NCBI GenBank assembly: GCA_001822815.1
Contig: MHSR01000013.1
Location: 85,093-149,092, forward strand
DNA from: Candidatus Terrybacteria bacterium RIFCSPHIGHO2_01_FULL_43_35
GTDB lineage: Bacteria > Patescibacteriota > Minisyncoccia > Terrybacterales > GWB1-40-14
Direction of reading: 5' to 3'
Length of the DNA: 64,000 nt
The translations under genes were made by a program, and so were the position numbers. Under the pieces are notes generated by a model that was given only the letters and a program-made list of their open reading frames with translations, did not search any database and was not told where the DNA came from. Positions 26,992 to 55,483 of the stretch are shown piece after piece (the stretch's first letter is position 1; every line of letters begins with the position of its first letter).

Positions 26992-27831
26992 TTAAGGCTG
27001 ACGGCAGAATGGCAAAACTAAGCCTTGAGCGCCGCCTTCCCATACGCAGCCAACGGCCTCACAAGCCGCCTTGCCTTGATTAGTGCAGGCGGTGCAACTG
27101 GATATAGAACAAGTGGGTGTAATTGCTCCGCCACCGCCGGAAGAAGTTCCTTGAGGAGCGCAACAATACACATCATGGAAGGCCTCTACGTATCCAGTTG
27201 TAGAATTGGTGGTATAGCTTCGTTCTATAGCGCATTCGGTGCGGATGCCACCGCATGTATTGGCGTTACATACGGAATTCGCCTCATCCACACTTACATT
27301 ATCCATAAGCTTACCGCATTCTGAACGCTGACTGGGACATTTGGCGCCATAAGCATTATCTGCTGTAGGCAGGGTTATTGTTGCAAAATTCACCAAGCTA
27401 CCATTTATGGCAGCTAAAATGATGTAGGAACTCAAAAGCAGGACCAGTCCAAGAATGGCGTTGGTTATCCTTTCCTTGGCTTCGTTTTGAGAAGTTGAAT
27501 TGCCCGCACCTGCGGCATATTGGATGCCTGCGACAACCATCATTACCAAAGCAAGGAAACCGGCAGAGCCTACGCCCAGCTTGAATACATAGACGATTAG
27601 ATCCGGAAGGCTGCCGGTGTTTGTGCCAATTGTTGGATTAAAAGAACCAATAATAGGCAAGCCAAGTCCTTTTTCAAACGGGATACCTTGGTTCGGGTCG
27701 TTTATGGTGCATATCGTGGCGGCATTGCTTGTTTGAGCAAAGTAAAAAACCGAAAAGAAAACAATTAAACCTAACATTAAAAGCGCGAATTGCGATCTAA
27801 TCCTCACATTTTTCAAGATAAATTTAACCAT
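26992..27831 (-). CDS. VirB2/TrbC-like pilin candidate with a Cys-rich C-terminal domain
   Basis: Signal peptide, then two hydrophobic helices separated by a short loop (FLALVMMVVAGIQYAAGAGN ... ILGLVLLLSSYIILAAI). The C-terminal roughly 120 aa carries more than 14 Cys. It is the last gene of the T4SS-like operon. Confidence 0.4.
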   Translation of the reverse strand: MVKFILKNVRIRSQFALLMLGLIVFFSVFYFAQTSNAATICTINDPNQGIPFEKGLGLPIIGSFNPTIGTNTGSLPDLIVYVFKLGVGSAGFLALVMMVVAGIQYAAGAGNSTSQNEAKERITNAILGLVLLLSSYIILAAINGSLVNFATITLPTADNAYGAKCPSQRSECGKLMDNVSVDEANSVCNANTCGGIRTECAIERSYTTNSTTGYVEAFHDVYCCAPQGTSSGGGGAITPTCSISSCTACTNQGKAACEAVGCVWEGGAQGLVLPFCRQP

Positions 27832-27854
27832 ATAAGTTTTATTGCAAGTTTGTA

Positions 27855-28409
27855 TTAAAAACCAAGCGCGTGGCCGATATTGGTCAAAGCATCGCCTATA
27901 AAACCGGCTACGCCGCCGACAGTCCCTACAACAAGCAGAATGATAATGATAAATGGAACAAACAGCATCATTATACCGAATACTAACCCTCCAATTATCA
28001 AAAACGGCACCAAGAAGCCTAAAGCCAGAGGATTACTTAAGAGGCGCTTAACCACGTGTCTTAAAACGAAGCCTTGCGGAGTGAATTGTTTTACGCCGGA
28101 AGTTGCGGCGTCTATTACTGCGCCAATACCCTGTTGACGCAGACTCTGTATGCGCGAGTGCCGCAGACCAGAACTTCTTTGATCTTCGTTGTCTTGAGGT
28201 GCCGTAGCCTTGGACGCAACGCGTTTGGCCACCTGCCTTAAGGCAAATCCTTGCGGAGTGAATTTTTTCACGCCCCCCGTTGCCGTATCTATAGCCTTAT
28301 TAATACCTTGCTGGCGCACGGCTTGAAGGCGCGCGCGGCGCAATTGTGCCTGGCGTTGCATTTCCACGTCTTGAGTTCCATCCATATTTAAAGCTGCTTC
28401 TTCGGCCAT
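27855..28409 (-). CDS. Membrane protein with two roughly 40-aa tandem repeats and a C-terminal double TM
   Basis: RRARLQAVRQQGINKAIDTATGGVKKFTPQGFALRQVAKR is repeated as RHSRIQSLRQQGIGAVIDAATSGVKQFTPQGFVLRHVVKR. Two TM helices follow. Confidence 0.5.
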   Translation of the reverse strand: MAEEAALNMDGTQDVEMQRQAQLRRARLQAVRQQGINKAIDTATGGVKKFTPQGFALRQVAKRVASKATAPQDNEDQRSSGLRHSRIQSLRQQGIGAVIDAATSGVKQFTPQGFVLRHVVKRLLSNPLALGFLVPFLIIGGLVFGIMMLFVPFIIIILLVVGTVGGVAGFIGDALTNIGHALGF

Positions 28410-28494
28410 ATGTACTAATTATAATATTTAAAACCTTTATAAGATATAGGACTTACACGTTTGCTTTTTTGAACGGATTAAGATAGCGATGTTT

Positions 28495-30306
28495 TTAACT
28501 GTTTGGGCTACGGCTTTGTTTTAACGCCACCAACTGCTCCGGATCCGATGTTATTATCTTATCTTCGGTATATGAAGCCACTACTTTTATGGCCACATGT
28601 TTCAAGCCGGCGAAAAACAGCCCCTCCCCCACCGCGGCTTCCAATAGAAGATATTTTTCTTCATCCGTCAGGTTAAAGGCTTGTTTTACCGCCTCAATTG
28701 TCGCGGGAGATTGTTTGAACAATATTTGCAGAGAGGAATTGGTAATTAAAGGCTGGCCGTATTTTGAATTCAGGAAATCGTTGACGTCCTGCGTTATTGT
28801 GGACAGGCCCAAGTAATATTTGCGCGCTCGCTTGGCTATGGAATAAAGGAAAGATCCGCCGTCTTCATGTTGCATTACCCACCAGGCCTCATCCACAACC
28901 AGCATGCGTTTCTTTAGAGATCCGCGCACCACGTTCCATATATGGTGCAAAATCATGTACATGGCTATAGGCCTTAAAGAATCCTCAAGATCGCGGATGT
29001 TGAAGACCACAAGATTATTGTTCAAATCGAGATTTGAAGGTTGATCAACGAACCCGGCGCTCGTGCCTTCAGTGAATTTTTTTAGCCGCGCGGCTAATTC
29101 GTCTCCGCCAACCAAACTTTCCAATACGGTAATGAAATCCTTTAAAACCGGTGGGTTAATGTTTTTAAAATCGCTCTCCGGAGTTATGTTGCGTGAGGCG
29201 TATGTTTCTTCCACTGCCGTGTCCATCAAGGCTTCTTGAGTTTCGTTTATGGTCCCAAGCATTATTCTTAGCAAGCCCGTAAGCTCAAGAAGATGCGAGC
29301 GGAAAATATCGGCTTGGGATTCGCCCTCAACAACCCGCGGCAAATCAAAGGGATTAATTTTATTCTGGCTGGTCAAAGAAATTTTAAAATAACTTCCGCC
29401 CACGGCCTCGGCTAAGCGTTCATACTCGTTTTCGGGATCAATAATAATTACGTCAACGCCCACCATAAGCGAGCGCAATATTTCTAGTTTCATGGCATAG
29501 GATTTTCCTCCGCCAGATTGGCCAAATATCACTGTATTGGCATTGGGCAGACTGAAACGATCAAAAATAACCAGAGAATTGTTATGCCGGTTAACGCCAT
29601 ACATTATCCCCTTATCCGTCGTTAAATCAAAAGAAACAAAAGGGAAAATTGTCGCCAGCGATTCAGAATCCAGGTTGTTTGTAATATTCAACCAATCCTC
29701 GTTGTAAGGGAATGCCGATTTTAAGGCCTCGCTCTGTTGAAATACGGCTGGCTTGGCATAAACCAATTTTCCTTCCAGGAGAGACCTTAAGACCGTTTCC
29801 TGTTTATCAAGCTCTTCGGGTGTTTTGCTCCACACTGTTATATAAAGCGAGAACTGAAAAAGATGACTTGAGGCTTGTTGTAATTTGTCCCTTAATTCTT
29901 CAACGTCTTCATAAGCCGTTTCCAGTATTGGATCACGCACGAGACCTTTTTCCTCTTCTATGGCTATCTGTGATTCTACCTCAGCAACTTTTTTGCGCAG
30001 TTTTTTAAGTATCATTCCGGTATCAATAGGATGTATGTGCATAGAAATATCCATGACCGCATCCATGTTTATTATCGGCGCAAACCAGTTAGTGGATAGA
30101 TACCGGGGATAGGTGAATATAAAAAACGTCCGGCAGTAGCGCTCCCCTACCTTAATAAAATTCTGACCAAATTCCAGAGCCGCTGGCGCCACCAGATCTT
30201 TTAGGGTGGTAATGCCGCGGGCAAAAACCTGACCGGCCTCGGCGAGAATGCGCTCGGTTTCTTGAGAAGACGGCGTTTTTTGTTTTTTAGAAGATAAAAT
30301 AGACAT
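28495..30306 (-). CDS. virB4: VirB4/TrbE-family T4SS ATPase, C-terminal roughly 600-aa fragment (ATPase domain)
   Basis: Walker A VIFGQSGGGKSY and Walker B VVDEAWWVM. The N-terminus (LKDLVAPAALEFGQNFIKVGERYCRTF...) continues the VirB4 fold after the N-domain encoded separately at 30701-31363. Confidence 0.85.
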   Translation of the reverse strand: MSILSSKKQKTPSSQETERILAEAGQVFARGITTLKDLVAPAALEFGQNFIKVGERYCRTFFIFTYPRYLSTNWFAPIINMDAVMDISMHIHPIDTGMILKKLRKKVAEVESQIAIEEEKGLVRDPILETAYEDVEELRDKLQQASSHLFQFSLYITVWSKTPEELDKQETVLRSLLEGKLVYAKPAVFQQSEALKSAFPYNEDWLNITNNLDSESLATIFPFVSFDLTTDKGIMYGVNRHNNSLVIFDRFSLPNANTVIFGQSGGGKSYAMKLEILRSLMVGVDVIIIDPENEYERLAEAVGGSYFKISLTSQNKINPFDLPRVVEGESQADIFRSHLLELTGLLRIMLGTINETQEALMDTAVEETYASRNITPESDFKNINPPVLKDFITVLESLVGGDELAARLKKFTEGTSAGFVDQPSNLDLNNNLVVFNIRDLEDSLRPIAMYMILHHIWNVVRGSLKKRMLVVDEAWWVMQHEDGGSFLYSIAKRARKYYLGLSTITQDVNDFLNSKYGQPLITNSSLQILFKQSPATIEAVKQAFNLTDEEKYLLLEAAVGEGLFFAGLKHVAIKVVASYTEDKIITSDPEQLVALKQSRSPNS

Positions 30307-30700
30307 TTAGCTAAAATTTCTAATTACTAATTTCTAATTGACCTAAGCAACTCTCAAGATACAAGATACAATAACCAGACAAATCACAATAATCAAAAGT
30401 TCAAATTCCAAAGCTCATCCTTCGACTCTACTCAGGATGACCCTGAACGGAAACGAATGGGTCAAATGACAATTCATGGATTCGACTTCGCTCACCATGA
30501 CCCTGAGTAGAGTCGAACGGGTCAATGCTTAAAATTCAAAGGCTTAAAACCGTTTTTGTGCCTTAGTCATTTAGGCTTGAATTGAAATTTAGATTTTGGC
30601 ATTTGGGTATTGTCTGTATCTTGGGTCTTGGTTATTCGCAACATTTTTGTCATTAGACATAGGGATTTGATTAGAAATTAAGAATTAGAAATTAGACATT
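30307..30700. mobile_element. Family-A MITE-like palindromic element (394 bp) inserted between the two halves of virB4
   Basis: Terminal inverted repeats AAATTTCTAATTACTAATTTCTAATTGACCTAAG (30314-30347) and its reverse complement at 30664-30700. Internal sub-palindromes are present (TCGACTCTACTCAGG / CCTGAGTAGAGTCGA). Related copies lie at 37451, 45858 and 56991. AT-rich, no ORF. Confidence 0.6.
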
Positions 30701-31363
30701 TTAAGCTTCTGCATTCAATGCGGCCATATCGGGTACTCCGCCAGTCTCTTCCTTCTCTGGATTATACAGGCCCCAAATTAGTTCTATTAGTTCTTCGGTG
30801 GTAAGCATGGTTGACCTAGAGCCCAAACCGCGCAAGCCTTGTTCAACAAATTCTACCCGTTGCACAAGTTGATTGCGAAACTCGTGGAATTTTGCGGCAT
30901 CTATAAAAAACTCTTTTCTGGACGCGGGCAGTAAGGTGGATTTAATACTGCCCAAGGGGCCGGTGTCTTTGGCCGCCGCGGCTTCAAGCGCAAAGGGCAC
31001 TATAACATAATAGGTTTTAGACATTATGGATACGGTTTCCACAAAAGAGCGTATGAATTCAATATATTCTTGGGTTTGGATCTTTAAGAGTTCATTTTCT
31101 TGGGCGGCCTCTAACTGCGAAAGAGTTGATAAATAGCCGGATATATTTAGGCGGCGCGAATGGACAAAAATCTGTAGATTAAAGTCCAGTGAGTTTAGAA
31201 AATTCTGGAAACCGTATATTATAGCCTCCTGTTCGTCTTGAGACTTCAGGCCAAAATTGGTTGCCGAAACCATTAAAATGGCTCGCAAAGAGCCGTCTTT
31301 TAACACAATGACATCGTCGCGTATTTGTTCAAATTGTAGGAAAGATTGAGTGGAAGAAGGCAT
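30701..31363 (-). CDS. virB4: VirB4 N-terminal domain encoded as a separate ORF
   Basis: FEQIRDDVIVLKDGSLRAILMVSATNFGLKSQDEQEAIIYGFQNFLNSLDFNLQIFVHSRR aligns position by position with the N-domain of A. tumefaciens VirB4 (...DHIVLLEDGSIMSIARIDGVAFELEEIEMRN...). 220 + 603 aa approximates one full-length VirB4. Confidence 0.7.
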   Translation of the reverse strand: MPSSTQSFLQFEQIRDDVIVLKDGSLRAILMVSATNFGLKSQDEQEAIIYGFQNFLNSLDFNLQIFVHSRRLNISGYLSTLSQLEAAQENELLKIQTQEYIEFIRSFVETVSIMSKTYYVIVPFALEAAAAKDTGPLGSIKSTLLPASRKEFFIDAAKFHEFRNQLVQRVEFVEQGLRGLGSRSTMLTTEELIELIWGLYNPEKEETGGVPDMAALNAEA

Positions 31364-31395
31364 ATGCCGTCGTTGCCCGCGAGCTCGCTCGCGGT

Positions 31396-31453
31396 TGCAA
31401 CGACGTGCATCCTAAGGAGCGAAGCGACGAGGGACTACCTTAATAAAAAATTC
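31396..31453 (-). repeat. 58-bp leader repeat, copy 1 (upstream of the VirB4-N gene)
   Basis: TGCAACGACGTGCATCCTAAGGAGCGAAGCGACGAGGGACTACCTTAATAAAAAATTC, versus copy 2 at 31926-31983 with 6 mismatches. An adjacent 38-bp hairpin (31368-31405) reaches to 5 nt from the start codon. Confidence 0.6.
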
Positions 31454-31479
31454 AAGTTTTTAGTTTTAATTTTAAAATT

Positions 31480-31899
31480 TTAGGATTTACGTACTTGAGT
31501 ATCTACATCTAGCGCCGTGGCCAACTCCTTTATTTTCTGCACGGTGAGTCCTTCGCCGCCAGCCCGCCTAGATGCGTCAAAAGGAGACTTTTTGTGTTCA
31601 CGTATCTTTATTCGCGGATTTTCTTTGTGCCATATATAGTTTTTTGGATTTACGGCAAATTTCAGCGCGGCAAATAAAAAAGTTCCGAAAGACCGCTCGT
31701 TGATTTTCACGAAAGCGAAGCAAACGCCAGCAACGACGCAAAAGAAAGCCAGCATTTTCCCAACAGGATTTTTTAACAAAACAAATAACAAAGCGGCAGA
31801 AATACCGGCCGTGCCCAAATCAATAGCCTGCCATAATGTCAGACCAGCCACAACCTTATCCTGCACGTCAATAAATTTTGGAACTTTAGCTTGCGCCAT
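31480..31899 (-). CDS. VirB3/PrgI-like small two-TM protein
   Basis: 139 aa with an N-terminal KVPKFIDVQDKVVAGLTLWQAI motif, then two TM helices. Sits directly upstream of virB4 (canonical VirB3-VirB4 order). Confidence 0.5.
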   Translation of the reverse strand: MAQAKVPKFIDVQDKVVAGLTLWQAIDLGTAGISAALLFVLLKNPVGKMLAFFCVVAGVCFAFVKINERSFGTFLFAALKFAVNPKNYIWHKENPRIKIREHKKSPFDASRRAGGEGLTVQKIKELATALDVDTQVRKS

Positions 31900-31925
31900 G
31901 GTTGCTCCCGAGCAACGCGAGGGAA

Positions 31926-31983
31926 TGCAACCATGTGCATCCCGAGGAGCGAAGCGACGAGGGACTACCTTAATAAAAAATTC
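31926..31983 (-). repeat. 58-bp leader repeat, copy 2 (upstream of the VirB3-like gene)
   Basis: TGCAACCATGTGCATCCCGAGGAGCGAAGCGACGAGGGACTACCTTAATAAAAAATTC. A CATGGTTGC...GCAACCATG hairpin (31897-31935) includes the start codon. Confidence 0.6.
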
Positions 31984-32651
31984 TATAAGCTCGGCTTGTT
32001 GCCCACATCTTTCAGATTAACCGTATTACCTTCTAACTGCGGTCCGGAGTTGTCAATTTGGGGAGGCGCGGGGGGCGTTAGAGTAACGTGCGGCACATCG
32101 GGCTGTGGAGAATAAAAGCTTTTTGTTGGGGGCGGTGCGCCGCTTATTTGTTCCGTGGGCGGCGATGATGGCTTCGTGTAAAGAGCGTCTATTGATGCGT
32201 TTGGCATTGGCGGCAACGGCACACCCGCAGGCCGTGTTGATGGTGGTGGGAGCGGAGGCGACACTGGCGCGGGTTTTGTTTGTTGGGTCCGCGCCTCAAC
32301 CGATGTTTTTTGAACTGACGACGCGCCTGACGAAGTTATGCCATATAAAGAGATCAACTCTGATTTTACCGGTTGGAAAACCGCGGACGATATCTCTAAA
32401 GCCAAGGCTTTAGCCATTTCAATATTAAGATGTTCGGTTTCAACTATATTTCTTACCAAAAGATTTGGATGCAGTTCGCCAAGTAATACCATGCCCACAA
32501 GTCCGGAATATACGTAAACACGTTCTTCAACACCATGCCTTTGACACGCCGCGTAAATATCGTCGCCGGTTTTTGGAGCAAGCAAAATATCTTTGACCCG
32601 TTTGGGCAAGCGATGATATAACAATTGAAATGATGTGGTTGAAGTTTCCAT
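31983..32651 (-). CDS. Hypothetical protein with a globular N-domain and a proline-rich tail
   Basis: The C-terminal half is PAPVSPPLPPPSTRPAGVPLPPMP...PPAPPQ low complexity. No recognizable domain. Confidence 0.5.
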   Translation of the reverse strand: METSTTSFQLLYHRLPKRVKDILLAPKTGDDIYAACQRHGVEERVYVYSGLVGMVLLGELHPNLLVRNIVETEHLNIEMAKALALEISSAVFQPVKSELISLYGITSSGASSVQKTSVEARTQQTKPAPVSPPLPPPSTRPAGVPLPPMPNASIDALYTKPSSPPTEQISGAPPPTKSFYSPQPDVPHVTLTPPAPPQIDNSGPQLEGNTVNLKDVGNKPSL

Positions 32652-32656
32652 AATTT

Positions 32657-34702
32657 TTATTTATTCTCTTCTTCCTGCCGTTTTGTCAGTCTTTCTAAAT
32701 GGTCAGCGGCCTCATTCGGCGTTCTGAGCTGTTTTACGGGTCCAGCTTTTACGGCCTCAACTATTCTGCCGCCAACTTTATTGAGTTGCGACTGCAATAA
32801 TTGCGTATCAAAACCGGCTCCGGCTATGGCGGGATTCCTAACTAGATAGTCAAATGTTGGCGCATTGGCTTTGTAGGCTCTGGCCAGGTATTCCTCGTTC
32901 TCTGAAAGCTTTTTTATGGCAGCGATTAGTTGTGGTGTAGCATGTCCTGCATCCACCATTTGGCCGATTCCATTGCCAGTTATTCTGGTCATTAACACCT
33001 CAGCAAATTCAGAAGCCCCAGTGATATTACCGGCTGCGTCTTTTTCAATGAGCGCATTTCCTGGGATTTGCCTTGCGTTAGCAGGAGCGGCCAGGTTATA
33101 ACTGCCAGGACGAGCCTCCATCATCTTTTCATAGGCGACCATGCGACTCTTTTTATCTGTGGTATCAACTCCATAAAACGGACTTGTTCTATCCTTACTT
33201 AAGAGTTCTAAAGCCAAAGCTGGGTTTGCCCCCACAATAGAGCCTTCTTTTCCAATCTTCCTCAGATAACCGAACGAATTCGTAAAGTCGTCACCCCTTA
33301 AGGGTCTTTTTTCGGCTAAGGCAATTAAGGCACCGGCTTTTTCGCGTCGGTCCGTCATACTGCTTAAGCGATTCTCGATACTCTGAACAGCGCGAGGTCC
33401 AAGAGAAGCCTCTTTTCTGTATTTTTCCGCATGTTCTCCCACGGCCGCTTCATCGGCTCGCATGCCGCCGCGCAATGGAGCAGAAATCGCTCCTCCAAAA
33501 ACCGGGATGCGCTCAATGCGTCCAGCGACGCCAGACCTTAGGCCATAAGTTCTATCCTTAATTTCTCTTCCCACTCCCCTACGCACAGCTCTTGCGCCGG
33601 CAATGGTCGGAGCGGCTACGAGGCCCGTGACCAAGCCTGCGGCAACTCCTCCGGCTTGGCCAGACATCTTTTTTGAAATAGCCATGCCTTGCGATAAGAA
33701 AATAAAGACCGTGATAAACTGCAATATATTTTTACCCACAAGCAGAAGCGGAGTTATGGCTTCATTGGTTAGGGTGTAATTGGTTGCGGCAACAAATATT
33801 TTGGTGTCGGGATCGTTCAGATAAGATACCAGCCATGTTGTAAGCCAAATAAAGAACGTGCCGAATACGCCAAACAGTGACCAGGTAATCAATTGATTCA
33901 TCCAATCTTGGAAGAAGCCCTTAGTTCTAGGCAGGACAAGTGAGATCATGGCTAAGGGCGAAACTATAAGAATGGTCCACAAGATGACAATGCGCATCAC
34001 AAAAAGTATGGCCAAAAACAATAGCAGGAAAAAGGTTGCGGCCGCAAATACTATTGAGAACATCAGGTTTGCTACTTTCAGCCAAGTGCCGGGTATCTGC
34101 GCCCCGGAAGGCGTATTTATTTGTAAATCCCCTACCCGCAAAGCGCTGGCCAATACCTCGCCGATGTTCTTGTTGGTGCCAAAGCCGTTGGCAATGAAAA
34201 AGCCCATGATGACGTTAGCGAAGTTTATAACCATCGCGCCCAAAAACAAACTGAAGTTTACCAATATGGCGGCTATCAGGAACTGCGGCATCAGCTTCCT
34301 TAAATTATAGTCCGGAAGACCAAGTATAGTGCCGAAAGCGATCACAACCAAAATAAACGCAAAAAACATGTTCACTAAATCTCTAACCACGCCCCAGCCA
34401 GTGCGCACCATGTCGTTGTCAAAGTAGCCCATGTAGCGGTTAACATCTACAACCACGAAAGTTAGCAGAGCGCCCGCAAGTGTTACAAACCAAATAAATA
34501 TTTCCAATATTAATCCTAAAATGAAAGCGATTATCTGGCCTATTAAATCGCAAAGGTCAACGCCGATAGGGCCTACGCCAATAAAACATTGGGCAGAAGC
34601 CGCTTGAGGGGCCAAAACACCGCCGGCAATAACCAAAATCAACAACATTACTGCCATTTTGCCCCTATTAAATTTTATTTTTTTAAATGACGTTGAGTGC
34701 AT
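32657..34702 (-). CDS. VirB6/TrbL-like polytopic membrane protein with a large C-terminal soluble domain
   Basis: Signal/TM, then at least six TM helices over about 350 aa, then a roughly 300-aa hydrophilic domain. Position relative to VirB3/VirB4 fits VirB6. Confidence 0.55.
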   Translation of the reverse strand: MHSTSFKKIKFNRGKMAVMLLILVIAGGVLAPQAASAQCFIGVGPIGVDLCDLIGQIIAFILGLILEIFIWFVTLAGALLTFVVVDVNRYMGYFDNDMVRTGWGVVRDLVNMFFAFILVVIAFGTILGLPDYNLRKLMPQFLIAAILVNFSLFLGAMVINFANVIMGFFIANGFGTNKNIGEVLASALRVGDLQINTPSGAQIPGTWLKVANLMFSIVFAAATFFLLLFLAILFVMRIVILWTILIVSPLAMISLVLPRTKGFFQDWMNQLITWSLFGVFGTFFIWLTTWLVSYLNDPDTKIFVAATNYTLTNEAITPLLLVGKNILQFITVFIFLSQGMAISKKMSGQAGGVAAGLVTGLVAAPTIAGARAVRRGVGREIKDRTYGLRSGVAGRIERIPVFGGAISAPLRGGMRADEAAVGEHAEKYRKEASLGPRAVQSIENRLSSMTDRREKAGALIALAEKRPLRGDDFTNSFGYLRKIGKEGSIVGANPALALELLSKDRTSPFYGVDTTDKKSRMVAYEKMMEARPGSYNLAAPANARQIPGNALIEKDAAGNITGASEFAEVLMTRITGNGIGQMVDAGHATPQLIAAIKKLSENEEYLARAYKANAPTFDYLVRNPAIAGAGFDTQLLQSQLNKVGGRIVEAVKAGPVKQLRTPNEAADHLERLTKRQEEENK

Positions 34703-34706
34703 ATTT

Positions 34707-36623
34707 TTATCGACAGGCGCTTATATCAAAAGGATTAAAGATGCCTGTATCGGTAGCCTTTTGGATCATCCAAATTTTAATCACACATTGCCAGTCGGAA
34801 ATATTTGGATAATAAGTACTCGGATTGTTTATATCGTATCTTTTCGACTCATATAGTTCCAAAACTCTGTCAAACCAATCATTGGTAGAGAAATCCACAC
34901 CAATTTTGGGGTCGCCCAAATTATCATAAACATCTCTTCTCGGCCTGGTTGGAGCAAAATAATTGTAATCTTGAAGTTTATAATTATAACCCAGAGAAAC
35001 GGTCGGACTATCATCTTCAAAGGGAGCCGGCAGACCAGATCCGACACGATCTTCAACCGGGGCGGTACTTGCGGCGTCTGGCGAAATTAATCGTTGATCT
35101 GGAGCAGAACGGAATTTAGCACTCGGTTTTAACCATGCGTCTATTAGTGTGCAGAAATTTGTTCCGTCAGGGTTGGTGTTGCAAACACCCCGCGTGTTAT
35201 TTGCATTAGCGGGATTGGTTTCGCCGCTATTGCTGGCAACTCGATATCTGTCCAAGATTGTTTTTGGTGTGCCTTGTGGTTCGGCTTGAGGATCCAAATA
35301 AACAAAACCCTGTCCAGCCAGATCAAATTGCGCCTGTGTGGCCGCCTGCATTTTTTGCAGCAAAATTACCGCCGGAGAAATAACATACTCTGTATTCATA
35401 GCAAAGGAATTTGTATTCCAAAAGAACAGTCCAGGATCAACAGATCCTTGAGTGTCTGTGACGTAGAGATATTCTGGACGGAGTCCCTGTCCGGCAAGAT
35501 ACTCCAATTGCCGTACTTGTTTGGCTTCGTTTACAATTCTGTCTATCTGCGTCTTTGCTCCTTCACGCACGCTTTCCAAAGAATTTGCCGGCAGGGTCAT
35601 TTTTTGTAGCTCTTCAAAGCGGACGTCGTTTCTATTTACCAAGCTTTTATCAAGCGTCGGCAAGTTCATTAGCTGGCGTATAAGGATTTGTCCTTGTGCA
35701 GAGTTTATGTCTATGTCGTGGAGCTCTACATCCTTGGTCGCTGTTTCGATATTTTCTCCGCGAGTTATTTCAAATACGCGTTCGCAAATTGGCTTGACAC
35801 GATTAAAATTTTGGTCATCAAAAAGGCCGGCTATAAAAGGATCTTCGTTTTCTATTCCACTGCCATATTGATACCAATGACCATAGTGGTTCAATACGCC
35901 CAGTTCCTTTTTAAGATTTCTTAAATTTTCTATGCTTTCTGATGTTGAGTAAGGATTCTTTACTGCATAAGTACTTTTAGGATCGGCGCCATTGTTGCCA
36001 AACAAAAAGTCTTGTTGATCCCATATCAAATAGTTTATGTAGCAAGCCGCAAAAGCCCGCCCCCTGTTTACCGGCTCACCAAAAATGAACTCAAACGGAT
36101 CGTGTATTATTCGAGGCCCTTTTAGCGGTGATATCGTGGGGGCCGCGCCATTGCTTCCTGCGCCCTCGGCACCAGCAAGTTTTTTATCGGCAATGTCATA
36201 AGCCAAACCAAAATCTTGCAATTCCTTTAGCGACTCTTGATAAAGTTTGTTCACGTCTTCGCGCGCTTTCTCAATTTTGGTTAGCTCAAAAGAAGCGGTA
36301 AAGTCTTCTTGGCGGTTGGCCAAGGTATTAAAAAGGTCGGCCATGAAACTTTCAAGGCTTGTTTCAAATTTTGTTCCGGCATCCTGATTTACCACGTAAA
36401 CTGGAACAGCGGCGAGAGCAGGTCCCACACTTTCAAAAATAAAAATAAATATAAGCGTGGATAAGCCAAAAACACGCGTCAGGCGCGCAAGAATTTTATG
36501 GACTGCAGATTTTTTCATGGGAACTGATTGGCGCGCAGAAATATTTTTCTGCGCGGCTCTGGAAATAAAAATTAAATTTATTTCTGCGAGACAGAGCAGC
36601 GGAGAAAAATTTGCCACCAACAT
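34707..36623 (-). CDS. Large secreted or surface protein of the T4SS-like operon, no recognizable domain
   Basis: A signal peptide begins at the internal Met (MKKSAVHK..., about 36518). Several Cys near the C-terminus. Confidence 0.5.
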   Translation of the reverse strand: MLVANFSPLLCLAEINLIFISRAAQKNISARQSVPMKKSAVHKILARLTRVFGLSTLIFIFIFESVGPALAAVPVYVVNQDAGTKFETSLESFMADLFNTLANRQEDFTASFELTKIEKAREDVNKLYQESLKELQDFGLAYDIADKKLAGAEGAGSNGAAPTISPLKGPRIIHDPFEFIFGEPVNRGRAFAACYINYLIWDQQDFLFGNNGADPKSTYAVKNPYSTSESIENLRNLKKELGVLNHYGHWYQYGSGIENEDPFIAGLFDDQNFNRVKPICERVFEITRGENIETATKDVELHDIDINSAQGQILIRQLMNLPTLDKSLVNRNDVRFEELQKMTLPANSLESVREGAKTQIDRIVNEAKQVRQLEYLAGQGLRPEYLYVTDTQGSVDPGLFFWNTNSFAMNTEYVISPAVILLQKMQAATQAQFDLAGQGFVYLDPQAEPQGTPKTILDRYRVASNSGETNPANANNTRGVCNTNPDGTNFCTLIDAWLKPSAKFRSAPDQRLISPDAASTAPVEDRVGSGLPAPFEDDSPTVSLGYNYKLQDYNYFAPTRPRRDVYDNLGDPKIGVDFSTNDWFDRVLELYESKRYDINNPSTYYPNISDWQCVIKIWMIQKATDTGIFNPFDISACR

Positions 36624-36631
36624 CCAAGATT

Positions 36632-37399
36632 TTACGGAAGAACATCCGGTGGCAGATAGAAATTATACGTGTTTTCAAGGTTCTTGATTTCCGCAATGAT
36701 ACCCTCGGATTCCACGGCTATTTTTGAGTGTTCACCAGAATTCCATAAATTCAGCACATCTTCTGAATTTGAACCGGCGATATTTTTTAAGAACAAAATA
36801 TATTGCTTAATAAGCGCGAGGCTGTGTTCGTGAACTGCGGCGGCCTGCGAAGGAGGCGTTATGGCGCGGAGGGCTTGCAGTTGTCTTTCGTATTCGGAGA
36901 TAACTTCATTTAACGCCTCTTTTTGGCCCTTGGCCGCAAGGGCCAACGCTATTTTTATGGTGTCGGGATTATTGCCGCCAAAATCTATGGCCGAAGAGGC
37001 AACGAAGTATTCATAAAGTGAGCGAGCCGGTTCAGTTTTAGGTATCGGACTTTGAGTTTGCGGTTCCTGGTCGCCGGTTTGGGCCGTACCGTTCAGTATA
37101 GCGTCATCACTTTTGTTTAGGGCGTCCAGAAGGCCAGCCATAAAAGGTCTATATGTTCCCGGTATCGTGTTTTGTGGGTGCGTAGCGTTTTGGTTTGGCG
37201 CGTCAAACACCGATGTCAAAAAACTTGAAATAGACAAACCACCTTTCGGCTTCATTATAACACCGCTAGGATTTTTTGCTGATGTGGATAAGTGGCTTAT
37301 GGGAAAACTATTTCCAAAAGCAAAAAATCCCGCAAGCAACGGGATAGTTATAACCAGCAGGAGCTTGAGAAACCGATATAAAAAGACGCCTTTTAGCAT
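36632..37399 (-). CDS. Secreted/anchored protein, paralog 1 of a three-gene tandem family
   Basis: N-terminal TM. The C-domain (ALALAAKGQKEALNEVISEYERQLQAL...) resembles the C-domains of the proteins at 37644 and 38792. Confidence 0.5.
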   Translation of the reverse strand: MLKGVFLYRFLKLLLVITIPLLAGFFAFGNSFPISHLSTSAKNPSGVIMKPKGGLSISSFLTSVFDAPNQNATHPQNTIPGTYRPFMAGLLDALNKSDDAILNGTAQTGDQEPQTQSPIPKTEPARSLYEYFVASSAIDFGGNNPDTIKIALALAAKGQKEALNEVISEYERQLQALRAITPPSQAAAVHEHSLALIKQYILFLKNIAGSNSEDVLNLWNSGEHSKIAVESEGIIAEIKNLENTYNFYLPPDVLP

Positions 37400-37450
37400 A
37401 TTAAGTACTTAGCGAAAAGCGTAAAGCGCAAAACGTAAAATGCGGTTTCA

Positions 37451-37581
37451 AATTGACCTAATTACTCTAATTGATCTAAACAACGTCTAATGCCAAAATT
37501 TCTAAACGCGCATTTTGGTCATTGGTGCTTGGATATTGGGGCTTGCTTAGGTCAATTAGAAATTAGAATAATTAGAAATTT
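37451..37581. repeat. Family-A short palindromic element (TIRs only)
   Basis: AATTGACCTAATTACTCTAATTGATC ... GCTTAGGTCAATTAGAAATTAGAATAATTAGAAATTT. The right arm is the reverse complement of the left TIR at 30314-30350. Confidence 0.5.
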
Positions 37582-37643
37582 ACAGCGGTTTTTAACTTTA
37601 CACTGTTATTTTACGTCTTTCGCTTTAAATTTTACATTTATTG

Positions 37644-38579
37644 TCATGGCGCCGGCTGTTGTTCTCCGCTGGTTGGGGGGTTTTGAACTGCTGGTGGATT
37701 ATATTTTTCCTCCAGGCCTAAACGTATTCTTTCCAAAGCATAACCTTGTTGGACCAAGTCCCCTCCCCAGCGCACGTCACGCATAAGTTTTACCGGATCG
37801 GTATTAATTTCATACAGGTCGGCGAAAAGCTCCCGCAGACCTTTGAACAAACCAAGATAGCCCTTTTGGAGATCAACGGCTTCCTTGGGCGTCTGCAGGT
37901 TGCGGATATGTTGTTCGGTTTCGTTTATGCCGGCCAACACTTTTTCTACCACGTCCGCTTTTTGTTCCTGCACCACGCTTTGGGCAATGTCAAAATAAGA
38001 CGCAGTTTCGGCAGGAAGCTGGATAGTTGAAAATTCTTTAAGGTAATTTTTTACCGCGTCGGTACCATCGGCCGCGGATATATTTATGTCGCGGTCGGAT
38101 ATTTCAGGCAGGATAAAAGCATCCATCTTTTTTTCAGTCAAGAATTTTTCTATCTGTTTTTCGTCAAGCCGCGGATCATTGTCTCCGGTTTTGGTCTGGA
38201 GCCAGGAAAAATATTGGACAGTTAAGTTAGAGGCAAGTTTTGTATTTTCATCGACGCGCGCACGGCCAGACAGTGTGGGGTCATAACCATTTTTAACCTC
38301 ATCACCATCTTTGTATCTGTCGCCGTCGGTGTCTGGATTATTGGGATTCGTTCCGTAAATTAATTCCTTGGCGTCGGATAAGCCATCGCCATCTTCATCG
38401 TGTAAAAAAGAAGCCGCCGAACCAATGGCCGGCTGGTTTACGGGCGAGTTTGAAAATATGGAGGCTTTGAGATTGCGCACAAAATTGCCGTGCCAAAAAG
38501 CCGAGCCGCCATATATGGCCAAGCCCAACATTAAGAGATAAAAACCAGGTTTTATTAATTTACGAAAAAAGCGGCGCAT
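37644..38579 (-). CDS. Secreted protein, paralog 2, with DxDGDG calcium-binding-type (thrombospondin type-3-like) repeats
   Basis: HDEDGDGLSDAKELIYGTNPNNPDTDGDRYKDGDEVKNGYDP, with an N-terminal TM. Confidence 0.6.
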   Translation of the reverse strand: MRRFFRKLIKPGFYLLMLGLAIYGGSAFWHGNFVRNLKASIFSNSPVNQPAIGSAASFLHDEDGDGLSDAKELIYGTNPNNPDTDGDRYKDGDEVKNGYDPTLSGRARVDENTKLASNLTVQYFSWLQTKTGDNDPRLDEKQIEKFLTEKKMDAFILPEISDRDINISAADGTDAVKNYLKEFSTIQLPAETASYFDIAQSVVQEQKADVVEKVLAGINETEQHIRNLQTPKEAVDLQKGYLGLFKGLRELFADLYEINTDPVKLMRDVRWGGDLVQQGYALERIRLGLEEKYNPPAVQNPPTSGEQQPAP

Positions 38580-38791
38580 ATTCTGTTTTAAGTATGGACC
38601 GCTTTAAATGTTTAGGCAAGCCGGGTAGTGATCCCGCCGTTGCGGGATTGATAACCTGACACGAGACTATTTTTGATTTTGGGCAAATAGGACAGCGTTT
38701 ATTTACAAAACAATAAATTTTGAGATAAAAAATCAGCAGTTTTTAAAAGCCGCCGCCTAACGCCACGGTATTTAAACTTTATATTCGTTGT

Positions 38792-39754
38792 TTAGAAAAG
38801 AGGCTTGGAAAAGTGGGGTGGATAAATATACATGTAAATAACATCCTCGTATTTTTCAAGAAATTCTTTGAGCCATTCGGCCTCTTTTACTAACATAACC
38901 GGATCATTTTGGCTAGCGTTGATTTCACTTAGTATGTCGTGCACGGTTTTGATGTAAGCAAGATCCCGTTCTTGGGTCATTCTTGCATAGCCTCGGGTAT
39001 TCTGCAGTGCGTTAAATGTCGCCTGCGCCGTAGTTATCATTTGTTCCAGTTGATACCGCTTATTTAGGTCTTCAAGGGAAATAATAAATAGATTTACATC
39101 GCCGCCGGCCTCATCGAGTTTTGTATTTGCCTCATAAATATAATTAACCAATTCCTCTGGCAGAGGCGCAGATGAATAGCGTTTTTCTAGATATTGGAAC
39201 AGCTCTTCATCTGACGGCGTAGTATTCTGTAATATTACCTTGGCGGACTCTTCAGCGCTTAGCTCTTGTAATATAACATGGTCAAGCCCTTTTTCCTTCA
39301 GAAAATCATCTACTTCTGTTTTGGTCAGGGTCAGATTATTCAAGGATGATTTTTGGCGTTTCCAGTCGTAAAACTGCACGGTTAAATTTGTAATCAATTT
39401 TGCATTATCTGATATGTTTCCGCCCTTAACCGCAGGATCTTTTCCTTGCGTTATGTCTTCGTAATCAGATATGCCATTTTGGTTAGTATCTTTATTTTCC
39501 GGATTGGTGCCATAAATTGATTCTTGATAATTCGTTAAACCATCGCCATCATCATCGCGGAACAAATCTGAGGATTGAAAACCCGCAGGTTTTTCCAGCT
39601 TCGGAGTTGGCGGCGCGGGTTGGTTATACGATGTTTGTTGTTGCGGGGCTTGATGTTTGTAATTAGGACTTAAAATAAAACTCACGGCAAAAACGCCTAA
39701 TAATATAAATATACTTATTAAGCCAATCTTTAATTTTTCAGGAAGTTGGAGCAT
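38792..39754 (-). CDS. Secreted protein, paralog 3, with DxDGDG calcium-binding-type repeats
   Basis: FRDDDGDGLTNYQESIYGTNPENKDTNQNGISDYEDITQGKDP. Same architecture as 37644-38579. Confidence 0.6.
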   Translation of the reverse strand: MLQLPEKLKIGLISIFILLGVFAVSFILSPNYKHQAPQQQTSYNQPAPPTPKLEKPAGFQSSDLFRDDDGDGLTNYQESIYGTNPENKDTNQNGISDYEDITQGKDPAVKGGNISDNAKLITNLTVQFYDWKRQKSSLNNLTLTKTEVDDFLKEKGLDHVILQELSAEESAKVILQNTTPSDEELFQYLEKRYSSAPLPEELVNYIYEANTKLDEAGGDVNLFIISLEDLNKRYQLEQMITTAQATFNALQNTRGYARMTQERDLAYIKTVHDILSEINASQNDPVMLVKEAEWLKEFLEKYEDVIYMYIYPPHFSKPLF

Positions 39755-39767
39755 GGATTTTTCAGAA

Positions 39768-41057
39768 CTATAAACAGCTTTTGCCGTTGCAGTTTCTAAG
39801 AGCCTTAATCATTTCTATCGAGTTAGTATTCGGCCATATGACACTGTAGTACTTAGTATGATTCATTATGGTTTTGCCCAAAGAGTCGGGCTCTTCGCGA
39901 TCAGTTAGACCAAGAGCATGGCCGACTTCGTGGTTGATAAGCCACCTTGAGCAGCCGTTTAAATAACGAAAACAGCTTCCTCCGCCAGCAAAGGCAATTC
40001 TGTTCCAATCGTAATCGCGGTGCGTAATTTCCGTGCTGCCGCATATATTATTGTACGTACCCATCTTTTGGGAAAATGATATACATCCGCCAACGACTTG
40101 GTAAGCCAACGTACAATTAGGGTCGTTAATCAACGCAATATCTGTCGCAGATGACTTGTACGTGTCAAAACTAAAGTTTACGCCGCTTTTTTCCCAGCCG
40201 CGTGAATCAGTCAGTGTATCTATCACAAAATTCCTTTGAGTCGTAGTCATGTTAATCAATGACACGCGGATGTCGTTGCCGTGTATGGCTCGTATGTGCG
40301 TACTGCCGCGAGTTTTGCCGCCCTTGGGATCGTTGATACAGCTATTGGAAGTATAATTAGGATAATAAGGATTAAACACTTTTTCATAGCCCGAAAATAC
40401 GAACTGGTAATAATCATTATGTGGCGAGCCAAAAGACGGGAAACGTCCGTCCGTATACCTGTCCAGAGTGTCAAATTCGCATTGGCTACTTTGGCACGTG
40501 GCCACACTGCATGATTGTCCTTGGCTAGTGCACCCATCTTGATTTGTGCAGGTATTTGTGGCGTTTGGTATTAACGCACAGGTGCCAGATACGCAGCCCA
40601 AGTAATTTCCGACCACCGGATTATATTGGCAAATACCAGATATGCACGTGCCTAGTGAACAGCTAGAATTGACGCAGTCTGCGTCTATTGTGCAGGTGGT
40701 TGTAGGCGGCGGACTTATATCTGGGCTTGATTGTCCGCAACCACAGGTTTGGGTGATTGAATCCCACAGATAAGCCGTTCCGAATCCGCCAACAGCCGCA
40801 CAAGCATCTCTACATGTGTCACAGCTGTCGGCAGGGAATTCTGGGCCGAGAAAAGGTTCGGTAGATAAAGTTAAGTCGCCGCATTCTTCGCCCAGCGTAG
40901 TGTCGACAGCTTGAACAGAGAATTTAGTTTCAACCGCCTTTCTTAAAGAAAAAGGCGAGTTATAAGACTGCAACGCAAAGGCCGCGGCTATGATTAGCAT
41001 GGAAAGCAATCCAAATATCCACCATTTTTTTATTATTCTGCCCCTTATTTTAATCAT
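39768..41057 (-). CDS. Membrane-anchored Cys-rich zinc metalloprotease (metzincin/snapalysin-like, HEXXHXXGXXD)
   Basis: N-terminal TM. An EGF-like Cys-rich middle region (about 30 Cys). C-terminal HEVGHALGLTD followed by a Met-turn-like TIMNH. Confidence 0.6.
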   Translation of the reverse strand: MIKIRGRIIKKWWIFGLLSMLIIAAAFALQSYNSPFSLRKAVETKFSVQAVDTTLGEECGDLTLSTEPFLGPEFPADSCDTCRDACAAVGGFGTAYLWDSITQTCGCGQSSPDISPPPTTTCTIDADCVNSSCSLGTCISGICQYNPVVGNYLGCVSGTCALIPNATNTCTNQDGCTSQGQSCSVATCQSSQCEFDTLDRYTDGRFPSFGSPHNDYYQFVFSGYEKVFNPYYPNYTSNSCINDPKGGKTRGSTHIRAIHGNDIRVSLINMTTTQRNFVIDTLTDSRGWEKSGVNFSFDTYKSSATDIALINDPNCTLAYQVVGGCISFSQKMGTYNNICGSTEITHRDYDWNRIAFAGGGSCFRYLNGCSRWLINHEVGHALGLTDREEPDSLGKTIMNHTKYYSVIWPNTNSIEMIKALRNCNGKSCL

Positions 41058-41987: not shown

Positions 41988-42995
41988 CTAAAGTAGTTGT
42001 TCCACTCTCACCGGTATAATCCCTCTATAAAGAGGAGAAAGCATTTTGAAAGCCGTGGCTTCAAGATCAATTATGCGGCCCGGGATAGTTGGTCCGTAAT
42101 CGTTTATTTTCACTATCACTGATTTGTTATTATTCAAATTGGTCACGCGTACAAAAGATTTTCTTGGGTATGTTGTGCTGGCAGCGTATAATCCCGGGAA
42201 TGCGTTATACCAACTGCCCAAAGCCTCGTCTACCCTGCCTATTACTATTTTTGTGCCGCGCAATTCTTCTTGCGTTTGAGGTTTTTCCAAAACAGTCGAG
42301 CTAAGCATTTTTTTCTTGATTATTCGCCCGTCCTCTTTTAATATTTCGAAAGCCGCACTCTTTTTGCCAAGCACCCCCGGTTTTATTATTGTAATTTTGC
42401 CGTAGGAGTTTTGGGGATCATCCGAGGCAATATGGTCAAAGGGTATGTCTAAAATTTCCGTAGTAGTTTCTAAAGAACGCCTTTTTATTTTTACGGTTAA
42501 TTTTTGTTTTATACTCGTTTCTTCTGCGGGCGTTATAATATCAAGCTCTCCAAGTTTGATTCCCTGTTCTGTTATGAATCCGCCTACAGTGTTTGCGTGT
42601 GTGAGGGCTTCGCGCTTTACGTCGTCATCTATGATGCTAATTACCGTTGCGTGATCAATAAAAATATTTTCGTTTGCGGAGATTTCCGCGTCGGGAGACT
42701 GGCTGATGATGTCGCCATCTTGTGCCGACAAACCCAAGACTGCTAGGGCATCGCGCACCGAAGAATCAGTTGGTACGTCAATCCTGTAGTTTATTCCTTC
42801 CTCTATTATGTTGATCTGAACAGTGTCGGATCCCGACTCTTTACTCTGATTAGCCAAACCAATCCCATCTTGGGCCCTGGCTTGGGATCCGGTTTGGCCT
42901 ATAAGCAGCTGCAGGCCAGTAAACATTCCGGCAAGAAAGAGAGCTAAACGCATAAAAACACTTATATAATAAGAAATATCTAATAATTCCGCCAA
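41988..42995 (-). CDS. Cell-wall-binding protein with G5 and RlpA-like double-psi beta-barrel domains (YabE-like)
   Basis: The C-terminus SWYNAF...VRVTNLNNNKSVIVKINDYGP...GRIIDLEATAF matches the RlpA/3D DPBB motif. The preceding segment is G5-like. Confidence 0.6.
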   Translation of the reverse strand: MAELLDISYYISVFMRLALFLAGMFTGLQLLIGQTGSQARAQDGIGLANQSKESGSDTVQINIIEEGINYRIDVPTDSSVRDALAVLGLSAQDGDIISQSPDAEISANENIFIDHATVISIIDDDVKREALTHANTVGGFITEQGIKLGELDIITPAEETSIKQKLTVKIKRRSLETTTEILDIPFDHIASDDPQNSYGKITIIKPGVLGKKSAAFEILKEDGRIIKKKMLSSTVLEKPQTQEELRGTKIVIGRVDEALGSWYNAFPGLYAASTTYPRKSFVRVTNLNNNKSVIVKINDYGPTIPGRIIDLEATAFKMLSPLYRGIIPVRVEQLL

Positions 42996-54283: not shown

Positions 54284-54359
54284 TGGTGCGCCCGGAAGGA
54301 TTCGAACCCTCGACAGTCTCCTTAAGAGGGAGCTGCTCTACCAACTGAGCTACGGGCGC
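54284..54359 (-). tRNA. tRNA-Lys (anticodon CTT), CCA encoded
   Basis: Folded by hand: acceptor GCGCCCG/CGGGCGC, D-arm TAGCTCAGTTGGTAGAGC, anticodon loop CTCTTAA, T-arm GAGGGTTCGAATCCTTC, 3' ACCA. Confidence 0.75.
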
Positions 54360-54396
54360 ATATAAGCCGCTTTCGTTTTTGGCGAATGAGCGGCGT

Positions 54397-55065: not shown

Positions 55066-55307
55066 GGACTCACCCCAAATTTAAAAAGAACTTATCCTTA
55101 ATTTAAGGATAAATTGTGCATATTGCAATAGCAAAATTTTATACTGCGTCCCCACGAGGATTCTCCCGACGTTTCAGTCGGGATCCTCCGATGGAGTCCG
55201 ATACTCGGCCTTATGCGGAGTCATCGGACCGACTTCTAGCTTTAAAATTTATAAAATAGTGCGTCGGGAGAACCCATAACCTTCTGGTCCGACCCAGCCA
55301 CTTCCAG

Positions 55308-55379: not shown

Positions 55380-55483
55380 AGAGGAAGGAGCTGGGCTATC
55401 CATTGAGCTAAGGGCGCATATTATATACCTTTAAAATACTTGTGCCGTATACAAAAGTCAAAATTTGTTAAAAGTATCAGAAC

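Follow-up and report, generated by a model that had tools for sequence, protein, structure and literature searches.

Nearly all of the ultrasmall bacteria belonging to the candidate phyla radiation (CPR, or Patescibacteria) carry, beside the replication origin, a chromosomal gene cluster for a type IV secretion system (T4SS), a class of systems described between 2023 and 2025 (PMC12102498 and PMC10633639, in the passages that concern it) and thought to be central to the host-dependent life of a very large share of the bacteria that have not been cultivated. In the sections devoted to this class, Quinonero-Coronel et al. (2025, Microb Genom, PMC12102498) place 2,425 of the 2,474 VirB4 proteins of their dataset in a Patescibacteria clade, whose systems have a TrsD protein (the arrangement of TrsD with VirB4 is reported there for 2,272 Patescibacteria proteins), VirB2-like pilins, no relaxase and, in Paceibacteria, a neighbourhood that includes dnaA, ksgA and rnpA. 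According to the same sections, the phylogeny of VirB4 follows taxonomy, with rare transfers between classes, and only 103 of 3,035 Patescibacteria genomes contain a relaxase, rarely near virB4. In the saccharibacterium Southlakia epibionticum, the one member amenable to genetics, the homologous cluster (SEML1_0006-0019) is essential for epibiotic growth, as reported from transposon sequencing in the relevant part of Wang et al. (2023, Cell, PMC10633639), and the T4SS clade of Patescibacteria has since been reviewed (PMC12857230). Here, we analyse a 64-kb stretch of a draft genome of Candidatus Terrybacteria (Paceibacteria), hereafter the window, in which a cluster of 12 genes is very probably the Terrybacteria copy of this chromosomal, origin-proximal T4SS, itself derived from the monoderm systems of mating-pair-formation type FATA (MPF-FATA).

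Comparison with described systems

The locus has all the defining features that we tested of the T4SS published for the Patescibacteria clade: a VirB4 with its Walker motifs, a separate and adjoining TrsD, a PrgI/VirB3 protein, a VirB6-like protein, a PF18895 pilin, no relaxase or type IV coupling protein (T4CP) nearby, and a position close to dnaA, dnaN, rnpA, rpmH and ksgA. For this reason, we regard the finding as the correct recognition of a system that is already known, the class to which it belongs having been described in 2023-2025. An initial interpretation of the DNA (the sequence-only reading) had likened it to the T4SS-like machines of CPR/Patescibacteria rather than to a conjugation system, and the component set, the gene order and the proximity to the replication origin do match the published clade as presented in the passages concerned of PMC12102498 and PMC10633639. 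An entry of Table S1 of PMC12102498 even lists as VirB4-positive the assembly GCA_001822905.1 (Ca. Terrybacteria, Paceibacteria), whose contig MHSX01000014.1 encodes exactly the same VirB4 protein as the window. This exact protein is also found in several independent groundwater assemblies, where the arrangement of TrsD, spacer and VirB4 recurs. Some traits set the locus apart: unlike the T4SS of Saccharimonadia, with their pilin array, it has a single pilin gene; it has no recognisable VirB1-type hydrolase within the operon and carries a hairpin element between TrsD and VirB4.

In the Gram-positive plasmids pGO1/pSK41 (trsC-trsD-trsE) and pCF10 (prgH-prgI-prgJ), the gene order is PrgI/TrsC, TrsD and VirB4/TrsE, with the VirB6-like gene upstream. 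The locus follows this PrgI-TrsD-VirB4 order, its VirB6-like gene also being upstream, and, like these MPF-FATA systems, is monoderm in type, without VirB7, VirB9 and VirB10. It differs from them by the lack of a T4CP, a relaxase, a VirB8-like protein (PrgL/TraM), a VirB1-like hydrolase and a surface adhesin (PrgB), and by being chromosomal and vertically inherited instead of being encoded on a mobile element. To our knowledge, the Gram-positive MPF-FATA systems have no VirB2-like pilin, which the locus does have. The VirB-type (MPF-T) systems of R388 and Agrobacterium have in common with it a VirB4, a VirB3-like, a VirB6-like (by a fold match to TrwI) and a VirB2-like protein, but VirB5, VirB7, VirB8, VirB9, VirB10, VirB11 and VirD4 are missing from the locus, and the VirB6-like protein that it encodes, with its long soluble C-terminal region, is double TrwI in size.

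These absences were assessed on all the called genes of the entire 64-kb window, by combining our own Pfam scans with precomputed Pfam matches. No gene carries a Pfam family of T4CP, relaxase, VirB8, VirB9, VirB10 or VirB11, in line with the absences of VirD4, relaxase, VirB8/9/10 and VirB11 announced by the sequence-only reading. Neither the relaxase (MOB) and the VirD4/TcpA-type coupling protein of conjugative T4SS, nor the VirB7/VirB9/VirB10 outer-membrane core, the VirB8 and the VirB11 of diderm VirB/D4 (MPF-T) systems, have a matching Pfam family in the operon or in the rest of the window, and no conjugative module linked to the cluster was found there.

Core components and gene order

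The cluster consists of 12 uninterrupted, co-directional open reading frames (ORFs) of the minus strand, confirmed at 26992-41057. We number them g1 to g12 by order of transcription, g1 being at the 41057 end and g12 at the 26992 end. Pfam matches above cut-off were obtained for g12 (T4SS_pilin), g8 (PrgI), g10 (P-loop_TraG, AAA_10 and DUF87) and the pair g2 and g3 (TSP3_bac). The components of the core, with the insertion that it contains, are the following:

32657..34702, minus strand: g6, extended VirB6-like polytopic membrane protein (681 aa; about 8-10 transmembrane helices and a C-terminal soluble region of about 300 aa)
31480..31899, minus strand: g8, PrgI/VirB3-like protein with a transmembrane hairpin (139 aa; Pfam PrgI, PF12666)
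30701..31363, minus strand: g9, TrsD-like protein, homologous as a protein of its own to the N-terminal part of full-length VirB4 (220 aa)
30307..30700, no strand: non-coding nested-hairpin insertion between g9 and g10 (394 nt; inverted repeats)
28495..30306, minus strand: g10, VirB4-type ATPase, the signature motor of T4SS (603 aa; Pfam)
26992..27831, minus strand: g12, VirB2-like T4SS pilin with a Cys-rich C-terminal extension, last gene (279 aa; Pfam)

The motor, g10, matches P-loop_TraG (2.6e-24), AAA_10 (2e-13) and DUF87 (1.4e-8), and the residues of its Walker A (G265, G267, K268 and S269) and Walker B (D472 and E473) motifs are invariant in the alignment of homologues. These number at least 8000 at E <=1e-10; among the 120 matches listed, lengths range from 583 to 619 aa, identities from 60 to 100%, and every name that bears a taxon is that of a CPR taxon. 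Its partner g9 matches the NCBIfam models VirB4_plasma (positions 103-233, 1.3e-8), CD1110 (2-119, 7.5e-5) and TrsD (3.9e-4), all far under the family cut-offs, and has a precomputed Pfam match to the TraC-like family PF26593. The sequence-only reading had called this pair a split VirB4, of which the VirB4-type ATPase has stood and the split has not. Both ORFs are intact, each with its own start codon, and a TrsD-like protein is encoded by a separate ORF before VirB4 in 79 of the 80 species-level loci that we retrieved with the VirB4 alignment for comparison, usually with a gap of 1-12 nt. Because the listed homologues of the ATPase are all of about 600 aa and TrsD is separate in these 79 loci, the division into g9 and g10 is not a disruption; the two-gene layout is evidently the normal, conserved state and not the result of damage. 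Separately, we observed on another Parcubacteria contig (L095:13782-17570) a VirB4 homologue of 1262 aa with an intein and a LAGLIDADG endonuclease (precomputed Pfam).

The calls of VirB3-, VirB6- and VirB2-like proteins, which might have concerned unrelated membrane proteins, were upheld by the profile and structure tests. The match of g8 to PrgI (2.6e-9, 37.9 bits for a cut-off of 27) confirms the VirB3/PrgI-like gene, whose homologues lie directly upstream of TrsD in 75 of the 80 loci. The pilin g12 matches T4SS_pilin (PF18895) at 3.1e-7, with 30.8 bits for a cut-off of 26.6, and the NCBIfam Mbov_0395 pilin-like model at 3.1e-5, under its cut-off. Its features include a signal-like helix, a pair of hydrophobic helices and the Cys-rich tail that had been pointed out, with 13 of its 14 cysteines in the C-terminal 115 residues, and a pilin homologue is found downstream of VirB4 in 71 of the 80 loci. 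The homologues of g6 were first recovered by a word-indexed search (19 proteins), a profile of which found 27,579 clusters (at 50% identity, in a representative library), from which we conclude that the family is huge and fast-evolving. Some of these homologues carry the Pfam domain TrbL_3 and others a sub-threshold TrbL. An AlphaFold2 model of g6 (from an alignment of 60 sequences) has a predicted local distance difference test score (pLDDT) of 80-97 over the transmembrane core (residues 50-370), the C-terminal 300 aa being weakly predicted. When this model was compared with the PDB by Foldseek, TrwI/VirB6 of R388 accounted for seven of the nine best matches, the best of which spans the whole TrwI chain at E 1.5e-3, with a probability of 1.0 and a TM-score, normalised to the target, of 0.50; at the sequence level, the g6-family profile matches TrwI at E 0.47. 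On this predicted fold, g6 is accepted as a putative VirB6-like protein of the 'extended VirB6' type, in agreement with the polytopic VirB6-like protein with a soluble C-domain of about 300 aa proposed initially.

The insertion between TrsD and VirB4

The 394-nt spacer between g9 and g10 has outer inverted repeats of 28 nt and an internal inverted repeat of 38 nt, folds as RNA at -117 kcal/mol (z -6.5), and contains no ATG-start ORF of at least 50 aa. In a close, Terrybacteria-like relative (locus L089, VirB4 83% identical), the corresponding gap is of 4 nt. The same junction contains a mini-gene in loci L009, L017, L068 and L074, encoding a 23S_rRNA_IVP four-helix bundle in three species and a PDDEXK_3 (GxxExxY) protein in one. 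Because the outer arms of the spacer match the arms that flank the 23S_rRNA_IVP mini-gene in L068, we regard the junction as an insertion hot spot, of which the window has a non-coding version. The spacer is apparently particular to this lineage and would be a secondary, non-coding insertion: the arrangement of TrsD and VirB4 would be ancestral and functional, and the hairpin would have been inserted later, at a junction to which small selfish elements are drawn in other lineages. We also considered that the spacer might be a known RNA, and rejected this possibility because Rfam gave only chance hairpin matches.

Related repeats occur at other places in the window. An exact sequence of 24 nt, TTGCTTAGGTCAATTAGAAATTAG, is present twice between genes of the operon, at 30327-30350 (minus strand) and 37543-37566 (plus strand), in opposite orientations and each time within nested inverted repeats, and related heptad repeats of the type AATTTCTAATT are found at 56992-57022, after the gene of the CCA-adding enzyme. 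Judging from their sequence, these 24-nt and heptad repeats look like a genome-specific family of hairpins resembling repetitive extragenic palindromes (REP) or miniature inverted-repeat transposable elements (MITE).

Conservation of the locus across Paceibacteria

In the 80 loci, VirB4 is accompanied by TrsD (79), PrgI (75), the pilin (71) and the VirB6-like protein (55), the VirB4 itself being present in all 80. The flanks are also shared: ksgA is upstream in 42 of the loci and yidC downstream in 62, so that the placement between ksgA and yidC/rnpA/rpmH/dnaA is common to dozens of Paceibacteria species. The relative L089 has all 12 genes in the same order. Identity between the window and this relative is of 83% for VirB4 and 75% for TrsD, and goes down to 34-40% for g11, g2, g4, g1 and the pilin, a gradient that fits what is expected of surface-exposed proteins tracking their hosts.

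We defined positional families across the 80 loci, each of which is essentially one homology cluster:

N-anchored proteins of about 300 aa, two genes upstream of VirB6: 40 loci, largest cluster 39 (18 with DxDxDG); in the window, g2 (1.6e-16) and g3 (1.2e-26), by profile
Large Cys-containing proteins directly upstream of VirB6: 44 loci, largest cluster 39; none detectable in the window
Pro-rich proteins after VirB6: 54 loci, all 54 in one cluster; in the window, g7 (6.4e-24), by profile
Small polytopic proteins after VirB4: 53 loci, largest cluster 41; none detectable in the window
N-anchored proteins of about 330 aa before the pilin: 57 loci, all 57 in one cluster; none in the window

Attempts to connect g4, g5 and g11 with the families that occupy these positions in other Paceibacteria all failed, whether made by phmmer, by hidden Markov models (HMMs) of the families, by an HMM of the g5 family searched against the 80 loci, by hhalign (17% at best) or by transitive phmmer (a single 13-bit match). 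Since all these links are negative, we treat the three proteins as positional analogues only. Ten counterparts by position, taken from other loci, had no match to Pfam. The family that precedes the pilin (loci L007-L086) has members of 316-384 aa, anchored by their N-terminus; it is lacking in the window and in L089, and the three members that we scanned have no Pfam annotation. It is a candidate for a VirB8- or VirB5-like function in other Paceibacteria.

Accessory genes

The seven remaining genes of the cluster are the following:

39768..41057, minus strand: g1, putative membrane-anchored Cys-rich metzincin-like zinc protease, first gene after ksgA (429 aa)
38792..39754, minus strand: g2, N-anchored protein with a TSP3 (DDDGDG) repeat of the Ca-binding type and a helical C-domain (320 aa)
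37644..38579, minus strand: g3, second TSP3-repeat protein, paralogue of g2 (311 aa)
36632..37399, minus strand: g4, N-anchored protein, no functional annotation (255 aa)
34707..36623, minus strand: g5, secreted or anchored protein directly upstream of g6 (638 aa; likely true start Met36)
31983..32651, minus strand: g7, protein with a Pro-rich tail between the VirB6-like protein and PrgI (222 aa; 14% Pro, no transmembrane segment)
27855..28409, minus strand: g11, tandem-repeat protein with a C-terminal transmembrane pair, in the slot of a small membrane protein after VirB4 (184 aa)

The description of g1 as a membrane-anchored, Cys-rich metzincin agrees with its single N-terminal transmembrane segment, its 26 cysteines and the motif HEVGHALGLTD at residue 376, the assignment to the family being putative. 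The Pfam family DUF3152 scores at the border of its cut-off (25.0 bits for 25.1), and comparison with the sequences of the PDB gave weak matches to the catalytic site of MMP-2 (E ~1). In L089, the orthologue shares 40% identity with g1 across the catalytic C-terminal 300 aa and keeps the motif, with 'IMNH'/'LMNH' downstream; no counterpart was found in the 80 other Paceibacteria loci, this close relative being the only one with an orthologue. The putative metzincin could act in the maturation of the Cys-rich pilin, or else cleave proteins on the surface of the host. A kinship between the Cys-rich regions of g1 and of the pilin was also envisaged, and rejected at a BLASTP E of 0.17 or worse.

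Three paralogous proteins with DxDGDG repeats had been proposed. Two of them are: g2 and g3 are 27% identical (BLASTP E 2e-31) and both match TSP3_bac (PF18884), at 5.3e-6 (26.6 bits) and 3.7e-9 (36.7 bits), respectively, for a cut-off of 25 bits. The third, g4, has no DxDGDG motif, matches g2 and g3 at a BLASTP E of ~1, and aligns with the C-terminus of the TSP3 family with an hhalign probability of 17%. Both g3 and g4 have an orthologue in L089 (61% and 38% identical, the latter in the same position).

The family of g5 comprises 61 proteins, and the members that we checked (L089, P0334 and P0331) all have their gene immediately upstream of the VirB6-like one, within a common template from ksgA to the pilin. 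Its predicted model has a confident core and no fold match in the PDB. In two distant homologues, lytic-transglycosylase domains (SLT or SLT_3) have been gained, which hints at a slot connected with the passage of the cell wall. In the Pro-rich protein g7, the tail follows a domain of about 105 aa that is conserved at the N-terminus. The tandem-repeat membrane protein g11, also recognised from the start as such, contains a unit of about 53 aa twice, the copies being 58% identical over 53 aa (E 5e-22), with transmembrane segments at 122-159; its orthologue in L089 is 34% identical, in the transmembrane part only. No match to Pfam, NCBIfam or PHROG was found for g4, g5, g7 and g11, except a weak one of g5 to a PHROG of unknown function.

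Genomic setting

The gene ksgA is immediately upstream of g1, on the same strand and 29 nt apart. It is accompanied by a YabE/RpfB-like gene with DUF348, G5 and DPBB domains (41988-42995, minus strand), and beyond that side of the cluster lies a divergent gene with LysM and Peptidase_M23 domains (43077-44270, plus strand). Downstream of the pilin, the opposite strand carries a flippase and two Wzy_C genes, and these are followed by jag/yidC, yidD, rnpA, rpmH, dnaA and dnaN, all within 10 kb. Since yidC, rnpA, rpmH, dnaA and dnaN lie just downstream, the cluster adjoins the replication origin. The DUF348-G5-DPBB and LysM-M23 neighbours of ksgA are also found in L089, and the M23 gene in L095. 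They could supply a peptidoglycan-remodelling activity that has no counterpart in the operon; alternatively, they may be part of a merely conserved housekeeping neighbourhood of yabE and ksgA.

The GC content across 26992-41057 is unremarkable, no integrase adjoins the cluster, and it has no att-like boundary. The scan of the locus for promoters and terminators was uninformative, with counts at or under those expected from shuffled sequences. The sole integrase of the window, of the XerC/D type (51974-53032, plus strand), is 11 kb from the operon; together with four tRNA genes (54287-58465) and a Fic-domain protein (57691-58242, plus strand), it belongs to a region 11-17 kb off for which we found no tie to the T4SS. 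A polynucleotide phosphorylase (PNPase; two RNase_PH domains, KH and S1) is encoded at 48665-50902 (minus strand), about 8 kb from the T4SS.

Two further genes had been singled out elsewhere in the window. The orphan pilB is indeed there: the sole T2SSE-family ATPase of the window is a PilB with an MshEN domain (7349-9028, plus strand), standing alone between tsaE and ruvB. The pilin fold attributed to the gene at 58507-59085 (plus strand) was not borne out by a Pfam match at E <=0.01; its C-terminal stretch 'AIESYYSKNGVYPATLEEL' resembles by eye the globular domains of GspG/type IV pilins, and it has no N-terminal class III signal.

Discussion

The locus encodes a translocon set of the cytoplasmic membrane, in which g6 is the extended VirB6-like channel or stalk protein. 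Its components suggest a mechanism in which VirB4, TrsD, PrgI and the VirB6-like protein would assemble in the single membrane, where the pilin, once exported by Sec, would be polymerised into a tube or pilus reaching the host. The anchored or secreted proteins encoded upstream (the TSP3 pair, g4, g5 and the metzincin) would act outside the cell, in attachment, penetration of the envelope or maturation of the pilus. The machine would thus serve an epibiotic lifestyle, by protein export or by the exchange of macromolecules with the host, and not the conjugation of plasmids. We favour this epibiotic role over a conjugative one because the homologous cluster is essential in Southlakia epibionticum and because of the phylum-wide analysis (PMC10633639 and PMC12102498, in the parts concerned). 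It is also conceivable, though rather doubtful, that the accessory genes (the g5 family, the TSP3 pair, the g7 family and the Terrybacteria metzincin) are integral extracellular parts of the machine, making a host-recognition and envelope-breaching tip or stalk that replaces the functions of VirB5, VirB8 and VirB1.

The lack of an obvious way of recruiting export substrates, the window encoding neither a coupling protein nor a relaxase, is compatible with a machine working in the opposite direction, in which the pilus or tube and VirB4 would take up DNA, RNA or cytoplasmic material of the host, as in import by ComB-type or archaeal Ced systems. Such an importer would suit a phylum in which the synthesis of nucleotides is mostly lacking. 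A 2026 preprint on a cultivated relative describes tubular structures (possibly T4SS pili) at the interface with the host and the uptake of host RNA, and links the monophyletic VirB4 with PNPase in a model, proposed for this phylum, of feeding on host RNA; the window has a PNPase gene (48665-50902); a linkage of the T4SS with comF, recG and radA is reported for the class ABY1 in the relevant passage of PMC12102498. However, PNPase is a housekeeping gene for which a distance of 8 kb is not a linkage, and the Pfam and NCBIfam scans revealed no recognisable nucleic-acid-binding or nuclease protein in the operon. Moreover, in Southlakia the T4SS is essential and the comEC-dependent uptake of DNA is not (PMC12857230). 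We thus consider import unlikely. A conjugative role, either as the mating-pair-formation module of an integrated element or with a relaxase and coupling protein encoded elsewhere in the genome, is suggested by the ancestry within MPF-FATA (PMC12102498, in the passages on origin) and by the similarity of VirB4, PrgI and TrsD, which is highest to the proteins of monoderm conjugation (NCBIfam models of integrative and conjugative elements (ICE), CD1110 and TrsD). It has against it the same flanks (ksgA and yidC/rnpA/rpmH/dnaA) in dozens of species, the absence at the cluster of an integrase, an att-like boundary or a deviation in GC content, the XerC/D integrase being 11 kb off, as well as the rarity of relaxases and the taxonomic signal of the VirB4 phylogeny mentioned above, which together make it very improbable. 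Finally, the non-coding element of 394 nt that parts the ORF of the N-terminal domain from that of the ATPase could be taken to mean that VirB4 was broken in two by an insertion and that the locus is a non-functional remnant. Yet the two-ORF layout is that of 79 of the 80 species and the 120 ATPase homologues listed are all of about 600 aa; both ORFs are intact and have their own starts, all 12 ORFs are uninterrupted, the catalytic residues are in place, and the ATPase and TrsD remain 83% and 75% identical to those of L089. With the same layout and the same insertion recurring in several independently assembled samples, we give almost no credit to decay.

Several points weigh against the identification of the locus as an epibiotic T4SS of the Patescibacteria clade, or at least against parts of it. 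Function is wholly deduced from homology and context, as it is for all the systems of Paceibacteria. For g6, the VirB6-like protein, neither Pfam nor NCBIfam gave a match, and the resemblance of its fold to TrwI is moderate (TM-score 0.5, E 1.5e-3). The call of a metzincin relies on the motif and a borderline DUF3152 score, and since g4, g5, g7 and g11 have no functional annotation their membership of the machine rests on position. The intergenic gaps, which include some of 212, 244 and 394 nt, imply that the 12 genes are not necessarily a single transcript. Finally, VirD4-like T4CP homologues are encoded far from virB4 in many Patescibacteria, according to the passage of PMC12102498 that deals with them, and our analysis covers 64 kb of a draft genome of 874 kb (on a contig of 243 kb), so that a T4CP or a relaxase could be encoded elsewhere, which is also a point in favour of conjugation.

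The locus does not reveal a new kind of system: it is a clean and complete example of the T4SS of Paceibacteria. What remains novel lies in the accessory genes, that is, in the fast-evolving genes for surface proteins that surround the core. The passages concerned of PMC12102498 and PMC10633639 name only the classical VirB/Prg homologues, and we found in them no description of g1, the TSP3 pair, g4, g5 and g11, nor of the positional accessory families, a metzincin in Terrybacteria, the fold-orphan family of g5 or the hot spot between TrsD and VirB4. Four or five families without annotation are as conserved in position as the components that have a name, and one clade has added a metzincin-like protease. 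If the accessory genes are indeed integral to the machine, they would provide a defined and testable list of the parts by which CPR cells other than Saccharibacteria connect to their hosts.

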